Assembly (NCBI GenBank): GCA_049700315.1
Contig: JBNAVN010000001.1
Span: 4,776 to 68,775 of the forward strand
Reading direction: 5' to 3'
Source: a bacterium
GTDB lineage: Bacteria; Hydrothermota; Tepidihabitantia; SM23-42; JAOAFX01
DNA: 64,000 nt
Part shown: positions 4,747 through 58,900 of the stretch, one piece after another
Position numbering within the stretch: position 1 is the stretch's first letter
How the letters are laid out: each line of letters begins with the position of its first letter
Translations under genes and position numbers: made by a program
Notes under the pieces: model-generated
The model's input: the letters and a program-made list of their open reading frames with translations, nothing else
Told to the model about the DNA's origin: nothing
Databases searched by the model: none

Positions 4747-4830
4747 GTCCTATTATACCTCAAAAAAAACACCCTGTCAATTACCTGTTAAAATCATAAG
4801 CATAGAATGATCCTATCTTTCGGAAAGAGA

Positions 4831-11901: not shown

Positions 11902-11924
11902 GGGAAATTAATTCTGCAACAAAA

Positions 11925-11970
11925 AAGGGTAGAAAGGAATAATGTTTGTTTCTTACTTCTTTCTACCCTT
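11925..11970. terminator. Bidirectional rho-independent terminator between the convergent S8 peptidase and M23 peptidase genes
   Basis: AAGGGTAGAAAG ... CTTTCTACCCTT inverted repeat flanked by A/T runs on both strands. Confidence 0.6.
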
Positions 11971-13164
11971 TTATTCTTTTGCCAATTCTGATCTAACATA
12001 ATCATTTTTCTTCAATTTATCTGCACCCGGGATCCAGCATCTTGGATCTGTAGGTATTCTATTCACCATAATTTGAAAATGCAAATTTGAACCCGTGCAC
12101 ATTCCGGTCTTACCCATTTCACCAATAACCTGCCCTTTCACAACTGTATCTCCTTCAGCAACATCTATTTTATTCAAATGGATATAAACAGTATGAATTC
12201 CCTGGCCATGGGCAATGACGACACTATTTCCATGTCCTTCAAGTTCTTTAGCCATTACTACAATCCCATTGTTGGCTGCAACAACCTCTGTCCCAATTGC
12301 ATTGGCAATATCAATTGCTTTATGCGACCACTTATCCAAACCATTATTATAGCGCCTTGCCATTCCATACATTGATGTGATTGAACCTGCACAGGGCCAG
12401 GTAAAATTACCGTCACATAAAAGGGTATCAAAAGATTTGCTATAGGCTTTGGCAAAATACTTCCAACCTTCAAATTTCATCATTTCCAGGGTTTCTTCAG
12501 TAAGGATATGGATATCAAGTTCTGCTGTATCCTGCTCTGCAAAATCACCGGGTATTACCCTGAACGGCACTTTCAAACTTTTTTTTATATCATTTTCTTC
12601 ATATTTCAAAGTCATAAAATACCTGCCTGTATCTGCATCCATTGGAACTGCAAGAACTGTACGGTAAATGTTTTTTCCTGCCGGATACAGTTTATAAGTC
12701 TTATACAAAAATCTTATTTCAGGCTTAATAATAGGTAGAACCGTAGTTACATTCAGCGTTGCAATTTCTCCCTGCTTGTATATTTTCTTGTCAAGGGCAA
12801 TATGTTGAAACAGTCCATTAATAAGAGTATCTGAAGTCATCAATCTGGAAGAAATCTTATCATTGATACTTGCCTTTCTGTCTCCTATTGCCTTTACGGG
12901 CATTAAATTTTCTTCTGGCAAAGGCTGATTTTGAATATTAAAATGAATAATAGAAGGATCAGCAAGTTGCGGAAACAGACCGGGCGCAAGATCAATCATT
13001 TTATCAATCGGTGTTATTCTTCTTTGTAAATCAATTGCCTTATTAAAGAAATTCAATTTTGTAGTATCCTTATTACTAATATCACCTATTTCTTCTCCTG
13101 CGCAATATTGAAAACTTGGGAAACACAATACAATCATTATAAGAAATCCATGAAATATTTTCAT
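11971..13164 (-). CDS. M23 family metallopeptidase (LytM/lysostaphin-type) with signal peptide
   Basis: C-terminal HxxxD...HxH motifs: HGNSVVIAHGQGIHTVYIHL, GKTGMCTGSNLHFQI. Confidence 0.85.
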   Translation of the reverse strand: MKIFHGFLIMIVLCFPSFQYCAGEEIGDISNKDTTKLNFFNKAIDLQRRITPIDKMIDLAPGLFPQLADPSIIHFNIQNQPLPEENLMPVKAIGDRKASINDKISSRLMTSDTLINGLFQHIALDKKIYKQGEIATLNVTTVLPIIKPEIRFLYKTYKLYPAGKNIYRTVLAVPMDADTGRYFMTLKYEENDIKKSLKVPFRVIPGDFAEQDTAELDIHILTEETLEMMKFEGWKYFAKAYSKSFDTLLCDGNFTWPCAGSITSMYGMARRYNNGLDKWSHKAIDIANAIGTEVVAANNGIVVMAKELEGHGNSVVIAHGQGIHTVYIHLNKIDVAEGDTVVKGQVIGEMGKTGMCTGSNLHFQIMVNRIPTDPRCWIPGADKLKKNDYVRSELAKE

Positions 13165-13217
13165 TTTACACGTAATTTTACCCGGAAATTCGTAGAAGTC
13201 AAGAGGTATTTTTCTAT

Positions 13218-14018
13218 CTATTCCCTTTTAACATCCTTTGCACAACGAAATCCATAATATCGGTCCTGGACAAATGGCTTTAATCCCATTCTTGAAGAGC
13301 ATTTTAAATGTCTTGGATTGATGCTCAACCAGGAGCCTCCCTTTAAGACCCTTACATATCCTGAATCCGGACCAGTTGGATTTTTTTCCGGACTTACTTT
13401 AAAAAAGGTAGTATCATAAAAATCAGCACACCATTCCCAGACATTGCCTGCCATATCATACAAGCCAAAATTGTTGGGTGAGAATCTGCCCACTGGTGCT
13501 GTATATCTGAAACCATCTGCCTCAAAGTTACCTTCGGGTGCATAGTTACATTTTCTCAATGGCGATTCATTACCCCAGGGATATTCTTTCTCAACAAGCC
13601 CGCCTCTTGCCGCGTATTCCCATTCTGCCTCAGTAGGTAGTCTTTTACCTGCCCATTTAGCATAGCATAACGCATCAAAAAAACTAACACCAACAACTGG
13701 TTGATTGGGATTATTCAAACAAGAGTCTTTGATAAATGCAGGTTTTGGATGACCTGTTGCTTTTACAAATTCAAGATACTGACGGTTTGTTACTTCATAT
13801 TTATCAAGATAGAAAGTATCTATCCAGATTCTATGCTTTGGACCTTCACCAGTTGAATCAGAACCCATTGTGAAATATCCCCCCGGGATCAATACCATAC
13901 CTGATGGTGGGGGCATTATTTTTTTTACCACCTTATCCTCAGTCTTTGTCTTATTACTACACAGAATAATCAGCAAGACAGCAAAAAATACGCAAGAAAA
14001 TCTGGTTAAAGGCTTCAT
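13218..14018 (-). CDS. Formylglycine-generating enzyme (SUMF1/FGE) family protein, membrane-anchored
   Basis: FGE-sulfatase domain motifs (DKYEVTNRQYLEFV, RGGSW). N-terminal TM/signal. Likely start at MKPLTRF. The ORF track extends to 14054. Confidence 0.75.
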   Translation of the reverse strand: MKPLTRFSCVFFAVLLIILCSNKTKTEDKVVKKIMPPPSGMVLIPGGYFTMGSDSTGEGPKHRIWIDTFYLDKYEVTNRQYLEFVKATGHPKPAFIKDSCLNNPNQPVVGVSFFDALCYAKWAGKRLPTEAEWEYAARGGLVEKEYPWGNESPLRKCNYAPEGNFEADGFRYTAPVGRFSPNNFGLYDMAGNVWEWCADFYDTTFFKVSPEKNPTGPDSGYVRVLKGGSWLSINPRHLKCSSRMGLKPFVQDRYYGFRCAKDVKRE

Positions 14019-14116
14019 TGTAAAACATAATATCCAGATTAAACAACAAGTCAAGAACCCATATCATTGAGAAATCTTCTTGACATTTTTAAGATTTTGT
14101 ATATGATTTTTCTACG

Positions 14117-14503
14117 ATGTACAAAGATCCGGTTTTTGATAGAATGCTTCAAAAAGACCCGCGCTACAGGCTAGAGGCATACATATTTGTTCTGGAGGCA
14201 TTGCACTATGCGCGGGGGAAATTCAATGTTGAAAAGCATGTGACTGGTAAACAACTTCTTGAAGGCATCAAAGAATTGGCAATAAAAAAATATGGGACAA
14301 TGGCAAAGATGGTTTTTGAACACTGGGGTGTCAAGAAAACGGTTGATTTTGGTAATATTGTCTTCAACATGGTTCAGGAGCATGTTCTAAGCAAAACCGA
14401 AGAAGACAAACTTGAGGATTTCAATGAAGTTTATGATTTTGAAGAAGTCTTTGTAAAAAATTATGAATTTGACTTCAATAACGAAAATAGAAATTTGATC
14501 TGA
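14117..14503 (+). CDS. Hypothetical protein (128 aa, acidic C-terminus)
   Basis: Intact ORF with coding-like composition. No recognised motif. Confidence 0.5.
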   Translation: MYKDPVFDRMLQKDPRYRLEAYIFVLEALHYARGKFNVEKHVTGKQLLEGIKELAIKKYGTMAKMVFEHWGVKKTVDFGNIVFNMVQEHVLSKTEEDKLEDFNEVYDFEEVFVKNYEFDFNNENRNLI

Positions 14504-14593
14504 GTTTATCTACCACCTGACCTTTTGAGTAATGGAACTCAACGTATGTACTTGACATTCTGAATATCCTAAATATAATATTATGTCATAGAA

Positions 14594-15235
14594 ATGGAAA
14601 ACTATTATAGTATACTTGGAGTAAGTAGCACTGCCACTATGGCGGAAATAAAGATGGCATATATGAAACTCGCCCGCCAGTACCATCCAGATAAATTTAC
14701 AGATGGAGAAGAGAAACAAAAGGCAAATGAGCATTTTGCCAAGATAACTGCTGCATACCGCGTGCTTTCGGATGAAAAACTAAGGGCTGAATATGACAAC
14801 TCACTTGAAAAAGGAATTAAACCAAAGGATCAGGTCCAGGAGACACAAGCCAAGAATGCCTTTACAAGGGCACTTGAATTCTTAAAGCACAACGACCCCT
14901 GGCGTGCAGTAAATCTTCTACGCATTGCCTGTCGTTATGACCCCCAACCACTTTATCTATCATACTTAGGACTTGCCCTTGTGTACACAAGGCAGTATCA
15001 GAAAGAAGGATTTGAAAGACTCCAGGGTGCAATAAAGCAATTGATGTTCAATCCTGTTGTTTATGTTAATTTAGGACTTGCCTATGAGTATGTTGGTAAC
15101 AAGGAACAGGCATTAAAGTATTTTTATGAAGCATTGAATTGGGATGGCAAAAATCATGCGGCAAGAAAAGGCATTGAACGATTAGAACCAAAGAAAACCA
15201 ACTTCTTCTCAAAATTTTTTGGAGGTGGTAAATGA
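14594..15235 (+). CDS. J-domain (DnaJ-like) protein with TPR repeats
   Basis: YYSILGVSSTATMAEIKMAYMKLARQYHPDK J-domain with HPD tripeptide. TPR-like C-terminal half. Confidence 0.85.
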   Translation: MENYYSILGVSSTATMAEIKMAYMKLARQYHPDKFTDGEEKQKANEHFAKITAAYRVLSDEKLRAEYDNSLEKGIKPKDQVQETQAKNAFTRALEFLKHNDPWRAVNLLRIACRYDPQPLYLSYLGLALVYTRQYQKEGFERLQGAIKQLMFNPVVYVNLGLAYEYVGNKEQALKYFYEALNWDGKNHAARKGIERLEPKKTNFFSKFFGGGK

Positions 15236-24470: not shown

Positions 24471-25493
24471 TTATGGAAGAATTTTGAGTTTACCCGGATG
24501 TTCCCTAATTATTTTGCCAATCAATCTAACTGACCTCTGATATTTTTCCAAAAATAAATTTACTTTGTCTTCAGATAGAACAATTGCTAAACCACCTGAA
24601 GTCTCAGAACCAAATATCAAATTTCCAATTTCAGGGGTTATACCTTCTTTTTGGACTCGTTCTGAAAAAGACTTTGTATTCATTGCAATACCCGGTTCAA
24701 CAATGCCATTTCTTACAATTTCAATAGCCCCTGGATAGACTGGAATTTTGGATGCCCACAGTTCAATTCCCACATTGCTTGCTTCAGCCATTTCTATCAA
24801 ATGTCCGGCAAGCCCGTAACCAGTTATATCAGTTGCTGCATCAACTCCGATTTCCTGCATTATCCTGGATGCATTTCTATTCAGAGTAGTCATTCCCTCA
24901 AATACCGGTTTCAAATCTATTCCTTCTGCTTTGTCAAGAAGGGTAGCCTGAATAATTGTGCCGACTCCGATTGGTTTGGTGAGAATTATTACATCACCTA
25001 ATTTTGCATTCGCATTTGTAACTATCTTCTGGGGATGGATATAGCCGATGACCGAAAGTCCATACATTATCCCTTCAGAATTAAATGTATGGCCACCGCA
25101 AATAGTGACACCTGCCTCCTGTGCCTTTGCCTGTCCACCTTTCAATATTTCACCGAGTATCTTAGGATCTCCCGCCCCAGGGAAACCAACCACATTCAAT
25201 GCAAGTTTTGGCTCACCACCCATTGCATAGACATCAGATATACAGTTTGTTGCTGCAATCATTCCAAATAGATAAGGGTCATCAACAACCGGTGCGAGCA
25301 GGTCAACTGTATAAACAAGTGCTAAATTGTCATTTATCTGATATACACCTGCATCATCCGCAGTATTCAATCCCACAAGCAGATTAGAATCCGTAATCGC
25401 CGGCAGATTTGAAAGCGCCTGCGCTAACTGCGCCTTAGAAATCTTGCTTGCTCAACCCGCGCACTTGATAAAGGATAACAATCCTTTCGGCAT
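24471..25493 (-). CDS. selD: Selenide, water dikinase SelD (selenophosphate synthetase), a selenoprotein with in-frame TGA (Sec) at 25452-25454
   Basis: True N-terminus MPKGLLSFIKCAG-U-ASKISKAQLAQALSNLPAITDSNLLVGLNTADDAGVY, in frame with listed ORF 24471-25376. It matches the SelD GAG(C/U)G.KI...LLVG...DDAAVY region. The rest of the ORF is the AIR-synthase-like SelD body. ATG at 25493. Confidence 0.85.
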
Positions 25494-25595: not shown

Positions 25596-25636
25596 GTGCA
25601 AAACAAAAAGGGGCTGTAAAACAGCCCCTTTTTGAA
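25596..25636. terminator. Bidirectional rho-independent terminator
   Basis: AAAAAGGGGCTG-TAAAA-CAGCCCCTTTTT hairpin with A/T runs on both sides, just downstream of the minus-strand T9SS gene stop (25650). Confidence 0.7.
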
Positions 25637-25649
25637 GAAAATCCTGTAA

Positions 25650-27479
25650 TCATTCAAGCATTATTATTTTCTGGATAAGATTCTGGTCTCCCGCAGAAAA
25701 TTTTACAAAGTAGACACCAGCCGGTAGTTTGTAACCTTTATCATCTTCACCAAACCAAACAACCATTGATCGTTCATCCATTGCTGTTAACCGTGAAAAA
25801 TCCCTGACCAGCCTTCCTGTCGCATCGTAGATTCTTAATTTGATTTCTGATTTCTGAGAACTGAAGTCTGTTTTTGTGTTCTGCCATTTTATCATAACAT
25901 TTTCCTTAAATGGATTTGGTAAAACTGAAAATCCGGCAGATGATTTATCAGAAGCATATTCATCAATTCCAACAAGCACCGGCACTGCAATATCATCTAC
26001 ATACCATCCTTCTGCTACCACGCTCTGGTCACTGATAAATCTGAATCTCAGACGCACAGTCTGTCCAGAGTATGCAGAGAGCGGATAACTAACCTGGGTC
26101 CAGGTACTCTGGGTTCCATTATAAATCCCCAAAATTCGCCACCATCCACAATTGTTGTCAATTTCACAATATGAGTAATCATAGTTCAATTCTGTGGCAT
26201 ACTGATGATAGAATCGGAGCAAACTATCCGGGGTCACCACAAAATACGGCGAAACAAGCGAAGCATCATTCAAATTTGTATATTGCCAGGTATTCTCTAC
26301 GCCTGAATACCATGAATGGGTCGGTGAATTGCTTTTGTGAGTTGTGATATGCCAGTTATCATTTCCACCCGAATGTGTCCAGGAACCCTGCCCCGATTCA
26401 ATGTTATCAACAAACCCTGGTTGATTTGTCACAATGAAGTTTATTGTATTTGTATCACCAGGTGTGCCAAAGTTCAAATTGAATTGCACTGTGCGAGGAG
26501 TTGGACAGGATGCACTGATGGTAAAATTGACAACTAATACTGTATCAACCTCACCTGAGGCAATTGAGATGGTCTGCGGTGTTGCTGAGGTAATGGTTAT
26601 GTATGGGTCACTCTCAGAAATACTTGCTGTTCCCGTATATGTGCCATTGCCGTTATTCTTGCCCTGAATATAAGCCCTTATTGCCTCGCCAGGCTGGGCA
26701 ATGCGGTTACCATTTCCTGAAGTTTCTGTGAAGGTCAAACCATAATAATCCATATTTATTTTGCCAGTAACACCTACCTCAGCTGCCTGATAGATCTCTC
26801 TTGTTGAACCCTGAACAAACGCAACGATCTTACAGTTTTGCTCATTCCAACTGGCGTCAATTGTAAAATTTCTTGATTTGACAATATTCCCACTTGCGGG
26901 TATTGAAACCGCCTCACCGTTTGCATCAGGAAGCATATCCCGACAAACATGCTCAACTGTTGTCAATCCATACCAGGAATAAGGAATGTTGTTTTCAACC
27001 ACTGCAAATTGAAGAGTTCCGGAAACGGTTCCAGTTGAAGTATTAGTTATTGATGCTGTGACTGTACCACTATTTGAGACCGTATCATATGTGCAGGTCA
27101 TATCAATGGTGAGCGGGCTTGAAACTGCAAGTCTCTGGGTAATCCAGCGTCTATATATCGGATACATTGTGCCAGGCATACTCACGCCGCCAACCTCCTG
27201 ATTATTACCGTCAACCTGAATTATTGGCGTTCCACTGATACCATAATATGTCCACCTGGCAACACCATCAGGACAGGAAAATGGATAACCACTGGCATGA
27301 TAAGCAATGACTACCACTGAATCATAAGAACGATTATAGTTCTCAGCAAGACCTCTTGCTGCACCAGGACAATAAGGTCAGCCTGAAACCCTGGTGAATT
27401 CTTCAAAGACCACAACCCGCTGGCTGGCAAAAACAAAAACACCTGTGGCGAGTAGCCCTAACAGCATAAGTTTTTTCAT
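25650..27479 (-). CDS. T9SS C-terminal-sorting-domain protein with N-terminal signal peptide and thioredoxin-like U-x-x-C motif (selenoprotein; in-frame TGA at 27378-27380)
   Basis: Upstream of listed ORF 25650-27317 the frame continues to the ATG at 27479: MKKLMLLGLLATGVFVFASQRVVVFEEFTRVSG-U-PYCPGAARGLAENYNRSYDS-VVVIAYHASGY. The C-terminus is a T9SS CTD (GVYFVKFSAGDQNLIQKIIMLE). Confidence 0.7.
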
Positions 27480-27725
27480 AAGACCCCCTTTATGACTGAA
27501 TATATTATAATAAATTTTCTTAAAATGTCAAGGGGAGACTTAAATGTATGTAGTTGTTGACTTTTTGCAATAGATATGTATAATGTTGTAAGATTTTCAA
27601 CAAAGGAGGTGATTTCACAATAATAATTAAATGTGCATGTTTGGCTGGGTCCTGGTTTAGACCAATTCTAAATCCTGGATCGCCAATTTTTCAGGCTTTC
27701 TTAGGCATAACAAAAGGGAGGTAAT

Positions 27726-31053: not shown

Positions 31054-31497
31054 ATGAATCGCAGTAAAAAAATAGCCAGTTTTAGAGATCTAGAAATCTA
31101 TCAAGAATCATACAATGCGGCAATTATGGTCATAAAAAGAATAATCCCTAAGTTGCCGCTGGAGGAAAAATACGACTTAGGCAGTCAATTAAGACGATCG
31201 GTTAAAGCAATTCCCAGGCTTATTGCAGAGGGATATTCCAAAAGACACCAGACCAAAGGTTTTCAGAAATATTTAGATGATGCACTTGCTGAAAGCAATG
31301 AGACAATTGTCTCACTCAGTCAAGTTCGTGATATATATGGTGTTGAAACTGATTTTTGTAATAAACTCATAAATGAATATGAAATTATTTCGCGTCAGAT
31401 TTATCGTTTGACATTGATATGGGAATCCTTTGGCAAAAGAAAAAGACCAACATCTCAACCTAAACCCAATGACCATAACATAGAGGAGGTAAAGTGA
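31054..31497 (+). CDS. Four-helix-bundle protein (family often found in 23S rRNA intervening sequences)
   Basis: SFRDLEIYQESY...IVSLSQ pattern typical of the TIGR02436-like four-helix-bundle family. ATGA overlap with the next gene. Confidence 0.65.
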   Translation: MNRSKKIASFRDLEIYQESYNAAIMVIKRIIPKLPLEEKYDLGSQLRRSVKAIPRLIAEGYSKRHQTKGFQKYLDDALAESNETIVSLSQVRDIYGVETDFCNKLINEYEIISRQIYRLTLIWESFGKRKRPTSQPKPNDHNIEEVK

Positions 31498-32579
31498 CCT
31501 TTTTTCTCTTGATATTCACAACCACCATCTCCCCACCCGGGGTGGTGCGGGCTTATGATGCGCCTGATGATGGCGGTGGTGCTGTAATAATAGAATGGCA
31601 GTTGTCACCAGATGATGCCATTATTGACGGTTATGAAATCTACCGGAGCGAAAATGGAATAGATTTTGAAAAGGTAGGATTTATCGGCAGGAGTAGAAAT
31701 TCCATTGATGACCAGACCGAAGATGGAACGAAATATTACTACAGAGTTGCTTCCCTGAAAGATACCGTAAGAGTATTTTCAGATATATCTTCACCGGTTA
31801 TGAGTTCTGCCCAGTGGATTGACCGCAATAAAATCAATATCCTCGTTGCATTGATGATTTTTGGTGGCATCATATTATATTATGTTTATCACGCAAAAAA
31901 AGGCAAAGAATTATACATTCGTAGAATCGCTGGACTTCAAGCAGTGGATGATGCAGTGGGCAGGGCAACAGAAATGGGCAAACCACTATTGTATATTCCG
32001 GGAATAGGCTATATAGAATATATTGCCACGATTGCATCAATGAACATCCTGGGAGAAGTAGCAAAGAAAGTTGCTCAGTATGATACCAAGTTCATAAATC
32101 CTCATGCTGACCCAATCGTTTATACTGTAGCACGGGAAATCATAAAAGAGGCATATACCAAAGTGGGGAGGCCAGACGCCTTCAATCCTGATTGCGTCTA
32201 TTTTATTACTGATTCCCAATTTGCCTTTGCCGCTGCCTGTGATGGTATAATGGTCCGTGAGCAACCAGCCGCGAATTTTTTGATTGGCTGGTTCCGTGCT
32301 GAATCTCTCATTCTTGCCGAAACCGGTGCTTCAACTGGGGCAATCCAAATTGCGGGAACCGACCAGTTGTCACAATTGCCTTTCTTTGTCACTGCCTGCG
32401 ATTATACATTGATTGGAGAAGAGTTATATGCAGCATCCGCATATATTTCAAAAGAACCATTGCTTTTAGGAGCCATCAAGGGGGAAGACCTTATTAAACT
32501 CATCATTGGTATTGTACTGATTTGCGCCTCGGTCATCGGTCTTAGCACGAAATTCCCAATCTTGAATTTGTTTAGATAG
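31494..32579 (+). CDS. Module copy 1, protein A: signal peptide + FN3-like domain + TM + conserved ~230 aa cytoplasmic domain + C-terminal TM (unknown family)
   Basis: Paralogous to 36400-37156 of ORF 35033-37156 and to 59521-60600(-). Shared motifs RRIAGLxAxDxAVGRATEMGKP, DPIVYTVAREI, AESLIxAExGASTGAIQIAGTD, QLPFFVTACDYTLIGEELYAASAY. Confidence 0.8.
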   Translation: MTFFLLIFTTTISPPGVVRAYDAPDDGGGAVIIEWQLSPDDAIIDGYEIYRSENGIDFEKVGFIGRSRNSIDDQTEDGTKYYYRVASLKDTVRVFSDISSPVMSSAQWIDRNKINILVALMIFGGIILYYVYHAKKGKELYIRRIAGLQAVDDAVGRATEMGKPLLYIPGIGYIEYIATIASMNILGEVAKKVAQYDTKFINPHADPIVYTVAREIIKEAYTKVGRPDAFNPDCVYFITDSQFAFAAACDGIMVREQPAANFLIGWFRAESLILAETGASTGAIQIAGTDQLSQLPFFVTACDYTLIGEELYAASAYISKEPLLLGAIKGEDLIKLIIGIVLICASVIGLSTKFPILNLFR

Positions 32580-32588
32580 GAGGATGAT

Positions 32589-33248
32589 ATGAAAAGAACA
32601 CTCCCTCTGATTTTAGTCTTCATCTTTGGAATTTGTGGTATTATTCCATTTTTAATACCACATCCTTATGTCCAGGGAACCGATGAGTTGTTACGTAATG
32701 ATTTATTAAGAATCCTCGCTGCATTCGCGCTGGTCTTAGGATTAGGGAGTCTACTGAGTGTCCACTTTGAAAAAATTCGTCGGCATAGACAAAACTGGCA
32801 ATATTCCTATGTTTTACTCATTGTCTTTTTTGTCACTTCAATCATCGGTCTTTTCGGTGGAGTTGCCGGTACCGGACCATTGCCGACAAAAATCGGTGCA
32901 TTCCCTTTTGACATCCAAACAATTTATATGAATATTGAAGTTCCGCTTGGTTCTACAATGTTTGCGCTATTGGCATTTTTGATGGCATCTGCTGCATACC
33001 GTGCTTTCCGTGCCCGCTCAACCGAAGCAAGTCTACTTCTTGTCGCAGCATTTATCGTAATGATTGGTATCCTCCCCCTTGGGAATAAAATTTCACCACA
33101 TCTTCCTTCATTCGCCCAATGGATTATGGATGTCCCAAATGTTGCGGGTAAAAGAGGTATTGGCTTTGGCATCGCCCTTGGCTCATTGGCAACAGCACTG
33201 AAAATCATTCTTGGAATAGAAAGGTCATGGCTTGGAGGTGGTGAATGA
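32589..33248 (+). CDS. Module copy 1, protein B: polytopic inner-membrane protein (unknown family)
   Basis: Paralogous to 37264-37941 and 58901-59524(-). Shared motifs [11 protein letters not shown], [18 protein letters not shown], LGIERSWLGG. Confidence 0.8.
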   Translation: MKRTLPLILVFIFGICGIIPFLIPHPYVQGTDELLRNDLLRILAAFALVLGLGSLLSVHFEKIRRHRQNWQYSYVLLIVFFVTSIIGLFGGVAGTGPLPTKIGAFPFDIQTIYMNIEVPLGSTMFALLAFLMASAAYRAFRARSTEASLLLVAAFIVMIGILPLGNKISPHLPSFAQWIMDVPNVAGKRGIGFGIALGSLATALKIILGIERSWLGGGE

Positions 33249-34108
33249 AGATTGTTGATCTAATGCTAAAGATTGACCGAAGAATCATCTATCTTGCCCT
33301 TGCTATTGTAGTAATTGTTCCATTGATTATAAAGTCCCCTCAGCATGTCCGAGTGATGACACCAGTTGAAAAACTTTTCAATGCGGTTGACACAATTCAT
33401 CAGGATAAAGCAATGATTCTTGACTGCGATTATGACCCTCAAACACAACCAGAATTGGAGCCTATGGCAATTGCTGTTCTCAGACACGCCTTCAAGAAAA
33501 GAATCAAGGTGCTGGTCTTGAGTTTATATGTGCAACCATTGGGGCTGGCAAAAGCCGCCTTAGACCAAACCGTGCAAGAACATAACCGCGAAGCAAAAAC
33601 GAATGAAGATAGTCTAATCTATGGAAGAGATTATGTCTTTTTAGGATGGCAGCCACCACCAATTGTTCCAATGCTCGGTATGGGTGAGAGTATTACCAAG
33701 GTTTACAAAAAAGATTATTACGGTCATCAGACAGATTCTCTGCCCCTGATGAAGACGATAAAGAACTACAATAATATTGAACTACTCGTATCACTGAGTG
33801 GTGCTGATACACCTCTTCTCTGGGTTGCCTATGCTCAAAACAGATTTGGAGTTCCGGTTGGTGCTGGGTGTACGGCTGTTTCAGCATCTGATTTCTATCC
33901 CTATCTTCAGACCGGTCAATTTTCTGGTCTATTGATCGGAATGAAGGGCGGTGCTGAATATGAAGAAATCGTAGAAGGAAAACTCGGAATACAGAGAAGA
34001 AGAAAGGCGAGCGAATCGCTTCTTTCACTTACTTATGCCCATTTGATAATGATATTATTTATTATTATTGGTAACATAGGTTATTTCATCAAGAGGAGGC
34101 AGAAATGA
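33245..34108 (+). CDS. Module copy 1, protein C: bitopic protein with N- and C-terminal TM helices and a ~230 aa periplasmic domain (unknown family)
   Basis: Paralogous to 37991-38866 and 58048-58869(-). Shared motifs LKIDRRIxxLxxAL, DYDPQTxPELxPMxIAxLRHAF, IYGRDYVFLG. Overlaps B by 4 nt. Confidence 0.8.
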   Translation: MKIVDLMLKIDRRIIYLALAIVVIVPLIIKSPQHVRVMTPVEKLFNAVDTIHQDKAMILDCDYDPQTQPELEPMAIAVLRHAFKKRIKVLVLSLYVQPLGLAKAALDQTVQEHNREAKTNEDSLIYGRDYVFLGWQPPPIVPMLGMGESITKVYKKDYYGHQTDSLPLMKTIKNYNNIELLVSLSGADTPLLWVAYAQNRFGVPVGAGCTAVSASDFYPYLQTGQFSGLLIGMKGGAEYEEIVEGKLGIQRRRKASESLLSLTYAHLIMILFIIIGNIGYFIKRRQK

Positions 34109-34746
34109 GTTTCAGTCATGACCCCTGGATCTGGATTAGTTCACTTTTGAGCCTTGCAATATTCTCTTTTCTTTACAAAGATAACCCATTCTACAAATTT
34201 GCTGAACATGTCTTTGTTGGCGCAGCAAATGGCTATGCAGTAACATTCTACTGGCACAATATCCTGGTTCCCTCACTCTTTGACCCGTTATTCAGACAAG
34301 GAAAATTACTTTATATAATAATCTTTGTTGTTGGTATACTATACTTCACAAGATTTATTCCTAAGATTTCCTGGCTTGTTAGAATACCAATTGCCATTCA
34401 AATTGGTTATTATACAGGTGCTGCTATTCCCGCAACCATACAAGCGGATATCATAAAGCAAATTCAGGGAACAATTCTTACAAAAGAGAACTTCCTCGCC
34501 TGGCATGCGGGAAACACGGGCATAGTCTGGTCAGTGATTCTGCTTGTTGGTGTCCTGTGCACTCTTTCCTACTTCTATTTTTCCCGAGAACACAAAGGAG
34601 TACTAAAAGTCACTTCACGCATTGGTATTGTTTTTATTATGATCGGTTTTGGTGCGGCATTCGGTTATACAGTAATGGCTAGGGTGAGCCTTTTGATTGG
34701 TCGGTTACAATTTCTACTGGGCCCCTGGCTGGGAATAATTAAATAA
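34105..34746 (+). CDS. Module copy 1, protein D: polytopic membrane protein (unknown family)
   Basis: Paralogous to 38998-39618 and 57434-58051(-). Shared motifs DPWIWIxxxL, FLYKxNPFY, SWLVRIPIA, ADIIKQIQGT, SREHKG, VMARxSLLIGRLQFLxGxWLGII. Overlaps C by 4 nt. Confidence 0.8.
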   Translation: MSFSHDPWIWISSLLSLAIFSFLYKDNPFYKFAEHVFVGAANGYAVTFYWHNILVPSLFDPLFRQGKLLYIIIFVVGILYFTRFIPKISWLVRIPIAIQIGYYTGAAIPATIQADIIKQIQGTILTKENFLAWHAGNTGIVWSVILLVGVLCTLSYFYFSREHKGVLKVTSRIGIVFIMIGFGAAFGYTVMARVSLLIGRLQFLLGPWLGIIK

Positions 34747-35032: not shown

Positions 35033-37156
35033 GTGTTTATGATGAACTCCATATTTTTTATCTTTGTTTTCTCGGTCCTGAATCCGCCCGAAAATGTTCG
35101 GGCATTGAAGGTAATCAATCAGGATAGCATCAGCATCACCATCACCTGGGATGTAAAAGAAGAAAAGGATTTTGATGGTTTTGAAATCTATCGCTCAAAA
35201 TATAAACTCTTAAAAACTGTATTTCAGGATACCATCTTTATTGATAATGATATCAAGACTGATAACGAATATCTCTATGATATAGTAAAAAAAGAAAGAA
35301 TGAAGGAATACAACCATCAAAAGAATTTTCTAAAGGTCGTCTCAATCGGTTATTTAGTTATAAAAGATACAATTAATAAAAGGAATATCATAAAATGGAG
35401 AAGACCAAATGACCTCTACCTCGGCGAAACTTATGAGATATGGCGCACAGAAAAGAATGGCGATTATGAACTCCTCGGTAGTGTGGATAAGAACCAAAAA
35501 AGTTTCCGTGATACGACAATGAAGGATGGGGTAAAATACTTCTATAAGGTTGCAGGGATAAAAGGGAATGAAAAAATATTCTCAGAGCCATCTTCTCCAC
35601 TCTTTACCATTGGCACTCCAAAATTTATCCATACTTGTGATATTCCCAATGACGAAGGAGAAGGTTTCAGAATAACCTGGGAACCGTCTCCAAATTATGA
35701 TATGATAAAGAGTTATGCATTGCTGCGCCTTGTCTATGATTCTATCGCTGCATTCAAAGATACCTTTTCTTATACTGATACAACTATAAAAAAAGATATT
35801 GAATACCATTACTACATTGGGAAAAACTATCAGATCACAATGCCGGCAAAGATTGTAGCAGATTCAATAGGAATGACAGGTAGGGTAATAAAAATAGAAT
35901 GGAAACTAAATCCGAAAGTTATTGGTCAGAATTATGACCTTACCCTTGTCTATCGTGCTGAAAGAGATAGTGCTGATAGATTCAAATATGTTGATTATAC
36001 TGCACCGGATGAAACAAAGTTTTTGGATGGAACTGCAGAACCAGATAAAGAATATATCTATGAAGCAAGGGCGGTTAAGGAAATCTCAATCCCATTCAAG
36101 ATTGAAAAGGATACAATCATCAATGGCAAAAGAAGTATTTCACTTTTCTGGAAAGGTTCAAAAGAACCACCTGAATTCTTGGGATATTATGTAATGCGGG
36201 CAGAAAAGGATAGTGGAAATTATGGTGTTTATGCACGTCTGGGAACTCAGATAGATAAATATCAGGACCGGGTTGGTATATATAACGGAATTCCTTATGC
36301 TTACCAGATTGTAGCAATAACAAAAGATGGAGAAAGAATATCATCAAAGACAACACCTTATGTGGTTGCTTCTCCCCAGTGGTTTCATACCGGTAGAATA
36401 AATGCCCTGATTGGCATTGTGATATTCATCTTTCTCGTCATATTCTTTATGGAATATACAAAAAAGGCAAAAAAGGATATCTTTGTGCGGCGCATTGCAG
36501 GTTTGTCAGCAATTGATGAGGCAGTGGGCAGGGCAACAGAAATGGGAAGACCAATTCTCTATGTTCCCGGGACATCGGTCATTGACGATGTCGCAACAAT
36601 TGCATCTTTGAATATTCTTGCTGAAGTCGCAAAAAAGACTGCGCAGTATAATACGCCATTAATCGTCCCCAACCGTGACCCGATTGTCTATACAGTCGCT
36701 CGCGAGGTTGTTAAAGAATCCTATAACAAAGTAGGCAGACCTGATGCATTTAATCCTGATAGTGTATATTTCGTCACTGATTCCCAGTTTGCCTATGCAG
36801 CAGCAGTAAGCGGCATTATGATCAGAGAAAAACCCGCAACAAATTTTCTGGTTGGAATGTTCTGGGCAGAATCTTTGATTATGGCAGAAAGCGGTGCATC
36901 TACTGGTGCAATACAGATTGCAGGAACAGATGCAGTTACACAACTGCCATTCTTTATCACGGCCTGCGATTATACACTCATTGGTGAAGAACTATATGCA
37001 GCAAGTGCATACATCTCAAGGAACCCAACGCTTTTAGCCGCGCTGAAGAGTCAGGATTATTGCAAATTAGTAATTGCCGGGGTGATGGCAATAGCAACAT
37101 TCCTTGCCCTTTTAAAAATCGGCATCCCGGTATTTAATTTATTCAATATTCAATGA
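35033..37156 (+). CDS. Module copy 2, protein A (expanded: signal peptide + ~5 FN3-like repeats + TM + conserved cytoplasmic domain + C-terminal TM)
   Basis: 707 aa. The C-terminal 250 aa align motif-for-motif with copy-1 A. The N-terminus holds repeated units with W...Y(E/R)I(Y/W)R...KY(F/Y)YKVAGI patterns. Confidence 0.8.
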   Translation: MFMMNSIFFIFVFSVLNPPENVRALKVINQDSISITITWDVKEEKDFDGFEIYRSKYKLLKTVFQDTIFIDNDIKTDNEYLYDIVKKERMKEYNHQKNFLKVVSIGYLVIKDTINKRNIIKWRRPNDLYLGETYEIWRTEKNGDYELLGSVDKNQKSFRDTTMKDGVKYFYKVAGIKGNEKIFSEPSSPLFTIGTPKFIHTCDIPNDEGEGFRITWEPSPNYDMIKSYALLRLVYDSIAAFKDTFSYTDTTIKKDIEYHYYIGKNYQITMPAKIVADSIGMTGRVIKIEWKLNPKVIGQNYDLTLVYRAERDSADRFKYVDYTAPDETKFLDGTAEPDKEYIYEARAVKEISIPFKIEKDTIINGKRSISLFWKGSKEPPEFLGYYVMRAEKDSGNYGVYARLGTQIDKYQDRVGIYNGIPYAYQIVAITKDGERISSKTTPYVVASPQWFHTGRINALIGIVIFIFLVIFFMEYTKKAKKDIFVRRIAGLSAIDEAVGRATEMGRPILYVPGTSVIDDVATIASLNILAEVAKKTAQYNTPLIVPNRDPIVYTVAREVVKESYNKVGRPDAFNPDSVYFVTDSQFAYAAAVSGIMIREKPATNFLVGMFWAESLIMAESGASTGAIQIAGTDAVTQLPFFITACDYTLIGEELYAASAYISRNPTLLAALKSQDYCKLVIAGVMAIATFLALLKIGIPVFNLFNIQ

Positions 37157-37263
37157 AAAAAGTTGGTTAAATGGTTAAAAGGTTAGATATAAAAAAGAAT
37201 GGTATCTTGTTGTTGTTCCAATTATTTAACCAATTACCATTTAACCAAAAATAAGGAGGTCTT

Positions 37264-37941
37264 ATGCAAAGAACAATTCCTTTAATAATTGTTTTGATAA
37301 TCGGCATTGCAATGCTTGTCCAATTCTTTGTTCCCCACAAGATATCCAAGGATATCTATATGTACTTCCTTGACTGGCTTGGAATCATTGCAGCATTCGC
37401 ACTGGTCCTTGGATTGGGCAGTTTGATAAACCATCACCTGGACAAGATTCAAAGGAAAAGAGAACACTGGCCCTATTCTTATGTTACATTGATTGCCATT
37501 TTGGTTACGGCAATAATCGGGCTTTTTGGCGGAATGGAAGGTAAGGGACCTTTACCAGTTCAACCACAATTTATGCTTGGCAATAAACTTATTGTGATTA
37601 AATATTCAATCCAGACAATCTATGAAAATATCATGACCCCGCTTGGTGGAACAATGTTTGCACTTCTGGCATTTTTTATGGCTTCAGCAGCGTATCGTGC
37701 ATTCCGTGCCCGCACATTTGAAGCCACACTCTTACTTGTTGCTGCATTCATCGTAATGATTGGTGTGGTACCACTTGGTTATTACATTTCACCAAAACTT
37801 CCTCATCTTGCTCAGTGGATAATGGATGTACCAAATACCGCTTCCAAAAGGGGAATCCTGTTTGGCGTTGGTCTGGGAATTGCCTCAACTTCTCTAAAGA
37901 TTATGCTCGGTATTGAAAGGAACTGGCTGGGAGGAAAATGA
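37264..37941 (+). CDS. Module copy 2, protein B
   Basis: 225 aa. Same motifs as copy-1 B. Confidence 0.8.
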
Positions 37942-37990
37942 TGGTCAAATCGTCTGATAGTTGGATGGTTAAAATAGGAAGGAGTAGAAT

Positions 37991-38866
37991 ATGAATCTGT
38001 GGGAGTATCTGTTAAAAATTGATAGAAGAATTGTTTTCTTGCTTGTTGGACTTTCGGTATTGATACCGTTAATATTCCCATTTGCAATAAAGACAAATGT
38101 AATGCCGCCAACCCAGACATTATTTAATACCATTGAAGAAATTGACCCTGAGGCAAAAGGCATTCTGATTGCTGCGGATTATGACCCTCAGACAATGCCT
38201 GAACTACAGCCAATGTTGATTGCCCTTTTGCGACATGCTTTTGCAAGAAGAATTCCTGTTCTTGTGATGACTTCTTATATTCAGGGTCCTGGGCTTGCAA
38301 AACAGGGACTTGACCAGGTGACCCAGGAATTCAATAGCCAGGCAATGATAAACGCAGATTCAATAATATACGGAAGGGATTATGTCTTTTTGGGTTTTCC
38401 ACCATTGTGGCTCGCTGCGGTTCTGAGAATGGGTTCTGATATCAGTCAGGCATTTCCTGCAGATTACTATAAAAACAGAACCGGATCTCTTGAAATGATG
38501 AAAAGAATAAAAAACTATAATGATATTGGGATTATTGTCTCCATTGCAGGTAGTGCCATTCCTCAATCCTGGGTAACCTATGCAAATACAAGATTTGGTG
38601 TAAAGGTCGGCTCAGGTGCAACTGCGGTCACTGCCCCTGATTTCTATCCATTCCTACAGACCGGACAGATGAGCGGAATGATTGCCGGATTGAAAGGCGC
38701 TTCTGAATATGAGTATCTTGTCAATACAAAATATAATCTTACCGGTCCAACCCCAGCGACAAGGGGGATGAGTTCCCAGTCTATTGCCCATCTTATGATT
38801 TTGCTTCTGGTCATCATCGGTAACATCGGACATTTTGCCACCCGCAAGAAGAAAACAAATGGTTAA
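37991..38866 (+). CDS. Module copy 2, protein C
   Basis: 291 aa. Same motifs and topology as copy-1 C. Confidence 0.8.
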   Translation: MNLWEYLLKIDRRIVFLLVGLSVLIPLIFPFAIKTNVMPPTQTLFNTIEEIDPEAKGILIAADYDPQTMPELQPMLIALLRHAFARRIPVLVMTSYIQGPGLAKQGLDQVTQEFNSQAMINADSIIYGRDYVFLGFPPLWLAAVLRMGSDISQAFPADYYKNRTGSLEMMKRIKNYNDIGIIVSIAGSAIPQSWVTYANTRFGVKVGSGATAVTAPDFYPFLQTGQMSGMIAGLKGASEYEYLVNTKYNLTGPTPATRGMSSQSIAHLMILLLVIIGNIGHFATRKKKTNG

Positions 38867-38909
38867 ATGGTTAAATAAATTGAGTGAAATGGAAAAGGGT
38901 TGAATAAAA

Positions 38910-39008
38910 ATGGAAAAGAACAGTAAAGAAAAGAAAAAGTTTAAGACTTTTGAGGATTTAGAAATTTATAAAAAGGCAAGAGAGTTTAGGAGGTTTTATG
39001 AGCAATGA
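38910..39008 (+). pseudogene. Truncated N-terminal remnant (32 codons) of a four-helix-bundle protein gene
   Basis: MEKNSKEKKKFKTFEDLEIYKKAREFRRFYEQ* shares the (F)xDLEIY motif with the intact four-helix-bundle gene at 31054. It ends overlapping the copy-2 D start. Its AGGAGG serves as the D2 ribosome-binding site. Confidence 0.45.
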
Positions 39009-39618
39009 TCCCTGGATCTGGATTGGTGCATTCTTGACCATCGGAATTCTCTCTTTTCTGTATAAAGAGAATCCATTTTATAGATTTTGTGAGCATTTAT
39101 TTGTGGGTGTAGCAAATGGTTATGCCATTGCCGTAACCTGGCATCTGATATTGACACCAAGGCTCATTATGCCTTTGCAGGGCGGAAATTATCTTGTGCT
39201 CATTCCGATGATCATTGGTTTACTCTATTTTTGTAGGTTTATTCCCAAGGTATCCTGGCTTGTGCGGATTCCTATTGCGGTTGCCTTGGGATTCTCTTCA
39301 GGTGTGAGCATCCCTGCCATATTGCAGGCAGATATCATTAAGCAAATTCAAGGAACAGTTGTTTATCCCCATTTGTTTAACAACTGGCAGCAGGGATTAT
39401 GGGCAGTGCTAATATTCGTCGGTGTCATTGCCACGATATTCTTCTTCTTCTTTTCCAAAGAACATAAAGGAATTCTCAAACCGGTCTCCTATATTGGTAT
39501 TATCTTCATTATGGTTGGTTTTGGTGCATCTTTTGGTTATACAGTTATGGCACGATTATCACTACTTATCGGCAGATTACAATTTTTATTTGGCACCTGG
39601 CTGGGAATAATAAGATAA
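38998..39618 (+). CDS. Module copy 2, protein D
   Basis: 206 aa. Same motifs as copy-1 D. Confidence 0.8.
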   Translation: MSNDPWIWIGAFLTIGILSFLYKENPFYRFCEHLFVGVANGYAIAVTWHLILTPRLIMPLQGGNYLVLIPMIIGLLYFCRFIPKVSWLVRIPIAVALGFSSGVSIPAILQADIIKQIQGTVVYPHLFNNWQQGLWAVLIFVGVIATIFFFFFSKEHKGILKPVSYIGIIFIMVGFGASFGYTVMARLSLLIGRLQFLFGTWLGIIR

Positions 39619-39733: not shown

Positions 39734-41377
39734 TTAGTGGGTGACCACCAATTTGGCTGAAACAACCTTTTTGTCAGCCTTCAGCACAGCAATATAGGCA
39801 CCATTCGCAAGTTCACGGGTATCAAGTGAAGTGGTATAAAATCCAGCATTTCTATTGCCCTGGTCAATGGTCTGGACCAATCTGCCATCAACAGTGTAAA
39901 GATTAATTGAAACACTGCCTGATTTGGGTAAGGCATAGGAAATGCCAGTTTGATTGCGTACTGGATTGGGTGCAATACTTAGTGCAAGTTTCTTCGGTGT
40001 CTCGGTTCTGTTTTCAGCAATACCCACAATTGGATTCCTGCCAACATACCAGCGAGCAGGAGTCGCAGCTCCTCCATTATTGATGTTCCAGTAGAGATCC
40101 AGCAATGGATCTGCGATAGCACAGCCAAATGCAAAGAATAATTGTCCATTTCCTGCGGAATCAAGCCTCTTGGAAATCTGCCATAGACAGTTGTTGTGGT
40201 CAGTAATGGAACCGGTCAGGTTTCTTGGTGTTGACCAGGTAGCACCATTATTCGCGGAATAGTTATAATAGACATCCCAGAATGTATACTGACCTGTGCC
40301 ACTGCGCGGCTGACCAAATAGCGCCACCACATAATTACCTTCCGCAGCAACTGTTGGATAGAAATTCCGTGCATCAGTTGCAGTATTACCCACTTCTATA
40401 CAATTGGCACCTGAAGCCGTGGAAACATAGACCTTACCACGATAAGGATAATTGCCTGCACCATAATCATCACCATGCCAGTTATCAAAGATCAGAATCG
40501 GATTACCCGCATCGGTAACCGCAAGCTGGGTGTAAGCAATGATATTGCTCGGAAATGGATTGGGCCAGACCAGGTTGTAAGATTGCTGGGCACTCCAGGT
40601 CAGACCATCTGTTGTTGTCTTGTAGTAAACATTGAGTGCATCATCATAATAAAATACGTAGGCAATTCCGCCATTCAGATCAAAGCCCCAATAATTTGAA
40701 ACTGCTGGTGCAATCGTGCCACCGGCAAGTCTTGTAGTAAGGTCCGTGCTGTATGTGCTCCAGAGAATATTACCATTTTGTTCAACACCAACAAAGAGTA
40801 TGTTACCGTTCGGCAACTGCTTACCAGGGTTCTTATGGGTTCCCAAATTTCCTGTGCCCACATCTACTGGTGTATCCCAGAATGAAGAGAACCAGCCACC
40901 ACTCTCATATTGAGCACCCATTCCACCCCAGGCACCACCGATAAGATATGGAAATGAGATATGTGGGCCAGAACCATTTATTGAAGCCACTGCACCAGGA
41001 TACCGGGCTGGACCAAGATCACCTGCATAAACCTCAACATCAGTCAATGCGCCACTAAAAATGTTATCATTCTGCCATACATCAAGGTTGCCACTTGTGA
41101 CAAAATTTCTGCAGACAAATTCAACATAACCGTCACCCGGCTCATAAGCAAGACATTCTTGCATCTGGGTCCACATAGAATATTCGTTTGCTGAAGAATC
41201 GGCAACTTCAATATCTCTTGTGACCATTACCGGGACATGTTTGTCACAAGTACCTGTACCATCATCCATCTTTGCCCTGTCAATATTTGCGGGCACAGTA
41301 ACTGCCCAGATTACACAGGCAAAAACCATAATAATTGATAGTTTCTTCATTTTTCTCTCCTTTCTTTTATATTTCAT
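39734..41377 (-). CDS. T9SS cargo protein with BNR/sialidase-like repeats (probable glycosidase)
   Basis: Signal peptide. BNR motifs SxDxGxTW (TTDGLTWS, SANNGATWS). C-terminal T9SS CTD (AYIAVLKADKKVVSAKLVVTH). Confidence 0.65.
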   Translation of the reverse strand: MKYKRKERKMKKLSIIMVFACVIWAVTVPANIDRAKMDDGTGTCDKHVPVMVTRDIEVADSSANEYSMWTQMQECLAYEPGDGYVEFVCRNFVTSGNLDVWQNDNIFSGALTDVEVYAGDLGPARYPGAVASINGSGPHISFPYLIGGAWGGMGAQYESGGWFSSFWDTPVDVGTGNLGTHKNPGKQLPNGNILFVGVEQNGNILWSTYSTDLTTRLAGGTIAPAVSNYWGFDLNGGIAYVFYYDDALNVYYKTTTDGLTWSAQQSYNLVWPNPFPSNIIAYTQLAVTDAGNPILIFDNWHGDDYGAGNYPYRGKVYVSTASGANCIEVGNTATDARNFYPTVAAEGNYVVALFGQPRSGTGQYTFWDVYYNYSANNGATWSTPRNLTGSITDHNNCLWQISKRLDSAGNGQLFFAFGCAIADPLLDLYWNINNGGAATPARWYVGRNPIVGIAENRTETPKKLALSIAPNPVRNQTGISYALPKSGSVSINLYTVDGRLVQTIDQGNRNAGFYTTSLDTRELANGAYIAVLKADKKVVSAKLVVTH

Positions 41378-41452
41378 ATATCACCATAACCACCACATTG
41401 TGGTTGGCTTTTCTGCTATTATTTTTTATTATCGCATCACCTCCTTTTTTCT

Positions 41453-44101: not shown

Positions 44102-44117
44102 TTTTATTCCTCTTTTA

Positions 44118-44155
44118 AGGGCGGGGTTCTGAGAAATTCAGAACCCCGCCCGATT
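44118..44155 (-). terminator. Strong GC hairpin just downstream of the porV-like gene
   Basis: GGGCGGGGTTCTGA-GAAAT-TCAGAACCCCGCCC. The T-run is on the + strand side only, so its function on the minus strand is uncertain. Confidence 0.4.
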
Positions 44156-44157
44156 TT

Positions 44158-45270: not shown

Positions 45271-45279
45271 ATTTGCCTC

Positions 45280-48243: not shown

Positions 48244-48255
48244 CTTGGCCTCCTC

Positions 48256-58869: not shown

Positions 58870-58900
58870 AATTTAGTGCTTCCGCAAAACGATAGACTTT

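Follow-up and report, generated by a model that had tools for sequence, protein, structure and literature searches.

The 64,000-nucleotide stretch of DNA analysed here (the window: forward-strand positions 4,776 to 68,775 of contig JBNAVN010000001.1, assembly GCA_049700315.1, from a bacterium of the Hydrothermota) carries on its minus strand, at 27479-25650, a gene that in our reading encodes a genuine selenoprotein, exported and equipped with a thioredoxin-like U-P-Y-C site in which selenocysteine (Sec, U) is specified by an in-frame UGA; judged from sequence comparisons, we put the probability of this reading at about 0.85. As listed, the open reading frame (ORF) starts at GTG 27317 (MVVIAYH...), has 555 residues and lacks a signal peptide. 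The first-pass annotation had proposed that the frame continues upstream through a TGA to an ATG, and the minus-strand sequence confirms that it does: the full frame starts at ATG 27479-27477, crosses TGA 27380-27378 as codon 34 and continues for 575 further codons to TGA 25652-25650, so that the product reads MKKLMLLGLLATGVFVFA, SQRVVVFEEFTRVSG, U, PYCPGAARGLAENYNRSYDS and VVVIAYH... in succession, with the residues after Sec beginning PYCPG. The features that bear on this reading are as follows.

27504 to 27531, minus strand: sigma-70-type promoter, TTGACA-16 nt-TATAAT, matching the consensus at 12/12 positions, some 25 nt ahead of the ATG.
27484 to 27490, minus strand: Shine-Dalgarno-like AAGGGGG, 4 nt before the ATG, read from the sequence.
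25650 to 27479, minus strand: full selenoprotein coding sequence, 609 residues plus stop, with Sec as residue 34.
27426 to 27479, minus strand: signal peptide MKKLMLLGLLATGVFVFA, predicted to be cleaved between VFA and SQ, signal peptidase I type, with no lipobox.
27378 to 27380, minus strand: in-frame UGA, proposed Sec codon 34, aligned with the invariant first Cys of CxYC.
27369 to 27380, minus strand: redox motif U-P-Y-C, the Sec analogue of glutaredoxin-type CPYC and of CGYC in the Porphyromonas gingivalis protein HBP35.
27344 to 27361, minus strand: hairpin CAGCAAG-AGGU-CUUGCUG resembling a selenocysteine insertion sequence (SECIS), 7 bp, with the stem beginning 16 nt after the UGA.

The promoter lies upstream of the TGA, which argues that transcription and translation start there and not at the annotated GTG 27317. 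Sequence comparisons likewise indicate that the mRNA starts at this consensus promoter and that translation starts at ATG 27479, and homologous loci have equivalent (A)AGG(A/G)GG motifs ahead of the ATG (translated as KGG or QGG). The extension encoded upstream of the GTG was claimed to comprise a signal peptide followed by U-PYCP; translation agrees, the signal peptide having been judged by inspection of the translated sequence. The predicted mature N-terminus after cleavage is SQRVVVFEEFTR, and the same n-h-c signal-peptide pattern is common to all Sec-form and Cys-form homologues.

Comparison among homologues further indicates that the UGA at codon 34 is under selection for read-through: more than 30 independent homologues keep the protein sequence both before and after it. 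Metagenome contigs were scanned with the DNA pattern GGN-TGA-NCN-TAY-TGY-NNN-GGN-GCN-GCN-ARR-GG, which yielded 31 matches, spread over 27 contigs; every match is a homologue with the TGA in frame. Upstream of the TGA, each match has a Shine-Dalgarno motif, an ATG, a signal peptide and the sequence '...V(V/L)FEEFTRVSG'; downstream, each has 'xYC[PY]GAA[RK]GL...' followed by the remainder of the protein. The same in-frame TGA feature occurs at locus L099, with the differing context EEFTATT-U-PYCPGTARGLAE; this locus provides independent confirmation because it was reached through a selD look-up and not through the DNA pattern, and because its context is different. At some loci (L001, L086, L092) the gene is present as two or three paralogues in tandem, and every copy has a TGA at codon 34.

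Cys-containing homologues, which the first-pass annotation had named as the test of its Cys/Sec correspondence, are contiguous ORFs in which an invariant C-x-Y-C-P-G matches U-P-Y-C-P-G. In alignment A1, the positions C34, Y36, C37 and G39 do not vary, and the UGA stands in register with C34; by this comparison the UGA takes the place of the attacking, N-terminal Cys in the invariant CxYC of a thioredoxin fold. The CGYC of HBP35 aligns at the same place. Of the 126 database homologues that match best, 98 carry CxYC within a complete N-terminus (CTYC being the commonest form), and about 20 of the rest are gene calls that start just past the UGA position. As a control set, genome contigs were scanned with the peptide pattern C[PTQ]YC[PY]GAA[RK], which returns Cys forms only, and 61 genomic Cys-form loci were found. 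About 100 full-length Cys forms have N-termini homologous to the N-terminal extension of the window protein, and no alternative start with a signal peptide lies downstream. The closest genomic relatives are metagenome-assembled genomes labelled candidate division WOR-3 and Candidatus Stahlbacteria.

Two side observations concern these Sec forms. Compared with the Cys forms (FTATW-C or RVT-C), those reading 'RVSG-U' are one residue longer immediately ahead of Sec, and the added residue is Gly in every case; among Sec forms, L099 (FTATT-U) is the exception in lacking it. Tandem Sec-form paralogues, each with its own UGA and hairpin, were seen in L001 (1836-6858), L086, L092 (6065-9647), L075 and L073; L001 has four consecutive selenoprotein genes, and selD directly follows the tandem paralogues in the L001 and L092 clades.

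With regard to the hairpin, the sequence CAGCAAG-AGGU-CUUGCUG is present as had been described, on the minus strand from 27361 to 27344, with a spacing from the UGA of 16 nt and not the 15 nt first given. The Sec forms split into two groups, type I (...CPGAARGLAE..., which includes the window's gene) and type II (...CYGAAKGLxDLY...). The window's own type I hairpin has a dG of -9.9 kcal/mol and is the minimum-energy fold when folding begins at the UGA; its base-pair probabilities are at least 0.985 when the 12 nt adjoining the UGA are left out. Thermodynamics alone does not single this hairpin out, and the case that it is not a chance structure thus rests on the comparative data, which uphold it as a SECIS candidate. 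The search pattern left the 3' arm free, and all 16 distinct type I sequences are fully paired, with standard pairs in 112 of 112 base-pair cells. Compensatory change is seen at pair 21-36, which is A-U in 13 of these sequences and G-C in the other 3; two different 3' codons lead to the G-C state, GUC (L003/L085) and GCC (L099). At pair 22-35, 12 sequences have G-C and 4 have G-U. Synonymous variation is suppressed as well, with third-codon-position entropy in the hairpin codons of 0-0.6 bits in Sec forms versus 1.7-2.0 bits at the corresponding codons of 59 distinct Cys forms. In those 59 Cys forms the hairpin register never reaches more than 5/7 pairs, even in the 18 whose encoded peptide is likewise GAARGL. 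At residue +12, for which the 3' arm codes, Sec forms have Ala or Val and 52 of the 59 Cys forms have Asp or Glu, a shift which suggests that the protein sequence is adapted to the stem. Type II Sec forms have an invariant 8-bp hairpin, UAAAGGUC-UGNNN-GACCUUUA, located 4-5 nt further downstream, which is 100% paired in 12 sequences and has zero covariation.

The protein that would result from read-through combines domains that are recognised by curated models, as follows.

26760 to 27422, minus strand: Omp28/HBP35-like module, residues ~20-240, a thioredoxin fold followed by a beta-sandwich.
25977 to 26384, minus strand: MAM-like / choice-of-anchor J beta domain, residues ~366-501 (PF20773 and NF038128).
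25662 to 25922, minus strand: type IX secretion system (T9SS) C-terminal sorting domain, type A, residues 520-606 (PF18962 and TIGR04183).

The Pfam model PF11551 (Omp28) matches residues 78-238 with 71.1 bits, above its gathering threshold of 34.9. PF20773 (InhA-like MAM domain) matches residues 455-501 with 41 bits (cut-off 26.9), and NF038128 (choice-of-anchor J) scores 30.5 bits against a cut-off of 30. The T9SS sorting domain named in the first-pass annotation scores above cut-off with both models (PF18962, 37.3 bits, cut-off 27; TIGR04183, 31.1 bits, cut-off 23); on inspection, the signal peptide that such a T9SS cargo protein depends on exists solely when the UGA is read through, in agreement with the earlier argument that without read-through the protein has none.

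For structure prediction, the Cys homologues P0001 and P0007 were modelled with AlphaFold2; a 12-sequence alignment gave a pLDDT of 55, with the N-terminal half unusable, and the model used here is that of the single-module Cys homologue P0007 (46% identical), from a 104-sequence alignment, with a pLDDT of 93.5. In this model, residues 23-119 form a thioredoxin fold (beta-alpha-beta-alpha-beta-beta-alpha), with a strand at 23-28 and the CxxC (33-36) at the N-terminus of helix 1 (36-53), followed by a beta-sandwich at residues 125-237; the invariant P85 of alignment A1, in G-T-P ahead of strand 3, would be the cis-proline of this fold. The best Foldseek match of the model in the PDB is 5y1a, HBP35 (E 5.7e-10, TM 0.70, 247 columns), and HBP35 is also the best match of the family profile, its FTAEWCGYCPG aligning with the family's FT..[C/U]xYCPG; weak sequence matches are to Methanocaldococcus jannaschii thioredoxin (1fo5) and Grx1 (3lgc). 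The thioredoxin-like domain that had been proposed from the motif is thus borne out by the homologue's model and its top structural match. Fold and motif together suggest an oxidoreductase. Components of the secretion route were also seen: a PorV/PorQ-family protein is encoded in the window at 44158-45270 (202 bits, cut-off 90), and SprA (SprA_N) lies beside the orthologous loci of relatives L092, L093 and L097.

Two further features stand downstream of the gene.

25600 to 25628, minus strand: terminator-like hairpin GGGGCUG-UUUUA-CAGCCCC followed by UUUUUGUUUU, 22 nt past the stop codon, read from the sequence.
24471 to 25493, minus strand: selD (selenophosphate synthetase; TIGR00476, 335 bits), the next gene downstream on the same strand.

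The terminator-like hairpin is GC-rich with a U-tract and is absent from the terminator pattern-scan listing; all the weak small-RNA- and terminator-type Rfam matches are concentrated on it.

TGA is the commonest stop among the window's long ORFs (23 of 52, including the gene at 25650-27479), so the standard genetic code applies in the window. A scan of the 64 kb found two in-frame TGAs with substantial coding sequence on both sides, one in the gene described here and one in selD. The latter, at 25454-25452, occupies the catalytic-loop position KCAG-U-ASKIS (in context, MPKGLLSFIKCAG-U-ASKISK...) and is followed after 18 nt by a hairpin, GCGC-AGUUA-GCGC. Measured from the respective UGA, the AGGU loop of the window gene lies at +27 to +30 and the AGUUA loop of selD at +26 to +30, at the same distance. 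A selD gene with its own in-frame TGA suggests that the organism decodes Sec, and SelB is present in the related lineage L097. In L097, at 11329-14630, an aminotransferase class V protein, Se_S_carrier (PF11823) and SelB lie 3.4-6.7 kb downstream of selD; this locus has the same ispA-selD context as L001 and has no Omp28-like gene.

A number of points weigh against reading the gene as an exported selenoprotein. When a 64-nt segment around the UGA is folded, the minimum-energy structure is a different one, with z = -1.23 versus shuffles, and covariation in the hairpin is confined to one pair plus one wobble pair, a limited extent that is expected because the stem doubles as coding sequence. Curated Rfam models, at gathering and at permissive thresholds, identified no SECIS-type family at either UGA, a null result that neither supports nor undermines the hairpin. 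Searches of the 64-kb window found no selA, selB or tRNA-Sec. The structural model stands for a Cys homologue of 46% identity and not for the window protein itself, the working of a T9SS is here extrapolated to a bacterium outside Bacteroidota, and we know of no extracellular reductant that would serve the site; the sulfidic sediment habitats of these organisms might, speculatively, supply one.

If Sec is accepted, the alternative that survives best concerns function: the U-P-Y-C site may not be that of a general oxidoreductase but a surface site that captures selenium (or another chalcogen, a metal or haem) and hands it over to feed YedF and SelD. We regard this as improbable, although the neighbourhood gives it some substance. 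Directly downstream of the Sec-form gene, selD is found in the window, in L087, in the L001/L092/L093 clade and in L099, and in 11 Cys-form WOR-3 loci it lies 1.4-2.5 kb downstream, with a smaller Omp28-like lipoprotein, a small T9SS protein and sometimes YedF in between. The gene order at L032 is Sao-like/NitT-type ATP-binding cassette (ABC) transporter, outer-membrane protein, Omp28-like T9SS protein, Omp28-like lipoprotein, small T9SS protein, YedF (184 bits, cut-off 110) and selD; at L100, selD, an NMT1-type ABC transporter and the Omp28-like gene all lie within 7 kb. HBP35, the closest solved relative, binds hemin and aids growth under hemin scarcity (PMC2907840). The linkage is patchy, however: sampled from the selD side, only 1 of 7 SelD homologues has an Omp28-like gene adjacent and 1 of 7 has one within 7 kb, five Sec-form loci with enough flanking sequence (L067, L079, L088, L090, L095) have no downstream selD, and neither do the closest Cys forms (L004-L020). 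The common arrangements may moreover be inherited and not independently selected, and in the window each of the two genes has a promoter of its own (that of selD, at 25547-25520, matching 11/12 consensus positions) with the terminator-like hairpin in between. The neighbourhood thus suggests a link to selenium handling that is patchy and not general, and the weak linkage among the 7 sampled from the selD side lowers the selenium-uptake reading to a minority hypothesis. A still wider version, to which we give marginally less credence, is that the Omp28/HBP35-like CxxC/UxxC proteins of WOR-3-type bacteria form the outermost part of a dedicated selenium-acquisition route. If so, a surface module delivered by the T9SS would take selenium from the environment, by capture or reduction, as an adduct of the S-Se-S or Se-Se-S kind and pass it to the periplasmic Omp28-like lipoprotein, to the ABC transporter and then to YedF and SelD, and the Sec forms would be selenoproteins that help supply selenium for their own synthesis.

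Further observations were made on these neighbourhoods. In the Cys-form WOR-3 genomes, the arrangement of L032 (91-8723) is also kept at L029, L030, L036 and L100; it starts with an SsuA/SaoX-like binding protein, a SaoP-like permease (147 bits) and a SaoA-like ATPase (242 bits), its Omp28-like lipoprotein has the motif ELFTWQRC[VS]YCPYAA, and its selD is a Sec form. In assembly GCA_900174595.1, which holds both L067 and L101, selD (L101, 115-3723) keeps the window's downstream synteny (tetratricopeptide repeat protein, GH57) and is preceded by a TonB-dependent receptor at the place where the window has the Omp28-like gene; the Omp28-like gene of that assembly is on the other contig (L067), with the window's upstream synteny.

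A far less probable alternative is that the TGA is a true stop, so that the product is the 555-residue protein from GTG 27317, or the gene a decaying pseudogene, and the 33 codons upstream are separate or non-coding. Existing annotation agrees with it: GenBank entry MGB9719881.1 (P0136; 'Omp28-related outer membrane protein', 555 residues) is identical to the 555-residue call, and gene callers break the pattern-matched Sec-form genes of relatives into a separate 33-residue upstream ORF and a truncated protein. Such a product would, however, carry a secretion tail while missing the signal peptide, the redox motif and the thioredoxin fold's first strand, and the 20-codon stretch from the TGA to the GTG (PYCPGAARGLAENYNRSYDS) shows conservation at the protein level and is homologous to the contiguous Cys-form ORFs. 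In addition, the TGA and the frame are maintained in more than 30 diverged genes, and promoter and Shine-Dalgarno sequence are placed ahead of ATG 27479. Equally implausible is an alternative decoding, in which a variant code or near-cognate read-through that needs no SECIS places Trp, Gly or Cys at the UGA, for which one might cite the lack of a tRNA-Sec gene within the 64-kb window and the reassignment of UGA in some uncultivated bacterial lineages, but which does not fit a window in which TGA is the commonest stop and terminates this gene too, in which the only other in-frame TGA is at the catalytic-site position of selD, and in which the codon stands in for a catalytic Cys and is followed by a conserved hairpin at the distance of a bacterial SECIS.

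Under the preferred reading, that of an exported selenoprotein, SelB carrying Sec-tRNA(Sec) would bind the hairpin 16 nt downstream of the UGA (apical loop AGGU) and insert selenocysteine. The precursor would be exported by the Sec translocon, its signal peptide cleaved after VFA, and, following folding in the periplasm, the C-terminal sorting domain would route the protein via the T9SS to the cell surface or the medium. There, U-P-Y-C may cycle between selenolate/thiol and selenenylsulfide (U34-C37) states, serving as a thiol-disulfide-type oxidoreductase or as a chalcogen- or metal-binding site, with the beta-sandwich and MAM-like domains possibly providing target binding. Compared with Cys, Sec would offer a nucleophile in the ionised state at neutral pH that withstands being over-oxidised irreversibly, which would be plausible for a redox site outside the cell, where thioredoxin reductase is unavailable.

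This reading has consequences for annotation and for the study of selenoproteins. At least about 20 database entries, MGB9719881.1 included, are cut at the Sec codon and lose signal peptide and active site; the neighbouring GenBank SelD entry (P0150, 323 residues, same contig) is also truncated at its UGA. The places of selenoprotein action would extend to T9SS cargo, displayed on the surface or released, in an uncultivated phylum of the FCB (Fibrobacteres-Chlorobi-Bacteroidetes) group (WOR-3/Stahlbacteria). With its Sec and Cys orthologues, its tandem arrays of up to three Sec paralogues and its two hairpin solutions at one site, the family is a study system for Sec/Cys exchange and for SECIS evolution inside coding sequence, and the recurrent but patchy proximity of selD, YedF and ABC-transporter genes is a testable lead on the function of Omp28/HBP35-type proteins.

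Elsewhere in the window, a minus-strand block at 39734-51027 appears devoted to surface and secretion functions; it encodes two proteins with a T9SS C-terminal domain (39734-41377 and 41453-44101), the PorV/PorQ-family protein, an unassigned 987-residue protein and a TonB-dependent receptor-like protein (48256-51027). The window also holds three paralogous four-gene modules, at 31494-34746 (plus strand), 35033-39618 (plus strand) and 57434-60600 (minus strand), each comprising a protein of ~360-700 residues followed by membrane proteins of ~220, ~290 and ~210 residues; the copies are 30-62% identical to each other, and L067 holds a syntenic copy.

In comparison with known systems, the hairpin resembles bacterial SECIS elements in its position, directly 3' of the UGA and within the coding sequence, and in the G and U of its small apical loop. 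The apical loop of the Escherichia coli fdhF SECIS is GGUC (compare AGGU here), and bacterial SECIS prediction uses a range of 16-37 nt from UGA to loop, which includes the AGGU loop, located about 24-27 nt past the UGA. The hairpin differs from the fdhF type and the bSECISearch consensus in that no bulged U was identified and the stem has just 7 bp, and in that the sister (type II) subfamily uses another hairpin shifted by 4-5 nt.

The first-pass annotation had called a secreted Sec protein of this kind unusual; it is less unusual than claimed in that a curated family, NF045500, already exists. Our literature search turned up no paper on a selenoprotein of Omp28 type or with T9SS sorting, nothing relevant on selenocysteine in WOR-3, and no mention of Omp28 in Haft's 2022 selenoprotein preprint. 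Periplasmic selenoproteins such as formate dehydrogenase-N have long been known. Replacement of the first Cys by Sec in a thioredoxin-fold CxxC is the commonest bacterial selenoprotein type, and the UxxC families of this fold include thioredoxin, glutaredoxin, DsbA-like, thiol-disulfide isomerase-like and redoxin-family proteins (PMC9312934). The window protein is like them in that Sec stands at the N-terminal Cys of CxxC, Cys orthologues coexist and UPYC is glutaredoxin's CPYC with Sec; by contrast, those proteins are small and cytoplasmic or periplasmic, and the table in PMC9312934 has no Omp28-type or T9SS-sorted protein.

HBP35 of P. gingivalis (PDB 5y1a) shares the signal peptide, thioredoxin fold, beta-sandwich and C-terminal sorting domain. 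It is a T9SS cargo protein whose in-vitro thioredoxin activity (insulin reduction) is abolished by mutating two Cys (PMC2907840), the same two that align with U34 and C37 of the window protein; it differs in having Cys instead of Sec, is ~20% identical, lacks the MAM-like domain and comes from Bacteroidota. Finally, the window protein is homologous over residues 19-244 to NF045500, 'Omp28-related selenoprotein' (Omp28_seleno), the existence of which means that curators already recognise Sec-containing Omp28 relatives; its score of 67.9 bits is below the curated cut-off of 200, and its relatives, Sec or Cys, score 47-81 bits. Against NF033782, 'Omp28 family outer membrane lipoprotein', it scores 66.8 bits (cut-off 150), and its signal peptide, ending in VFA before SQ, lacks the lipobox Cys. 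These scores place the window protein and the relatives tested outside both curated families, though they are clearly homologous to them, and the window protein, at ~610 residues, additionally carries the MAM-like domain and the T9SS tail. It is well supported that the window gene is a real selenoprotein gene belonging to a separate clade of ~600-residue predicted T9SS cargo proteins, of a kind that is already known and not unprecedented.

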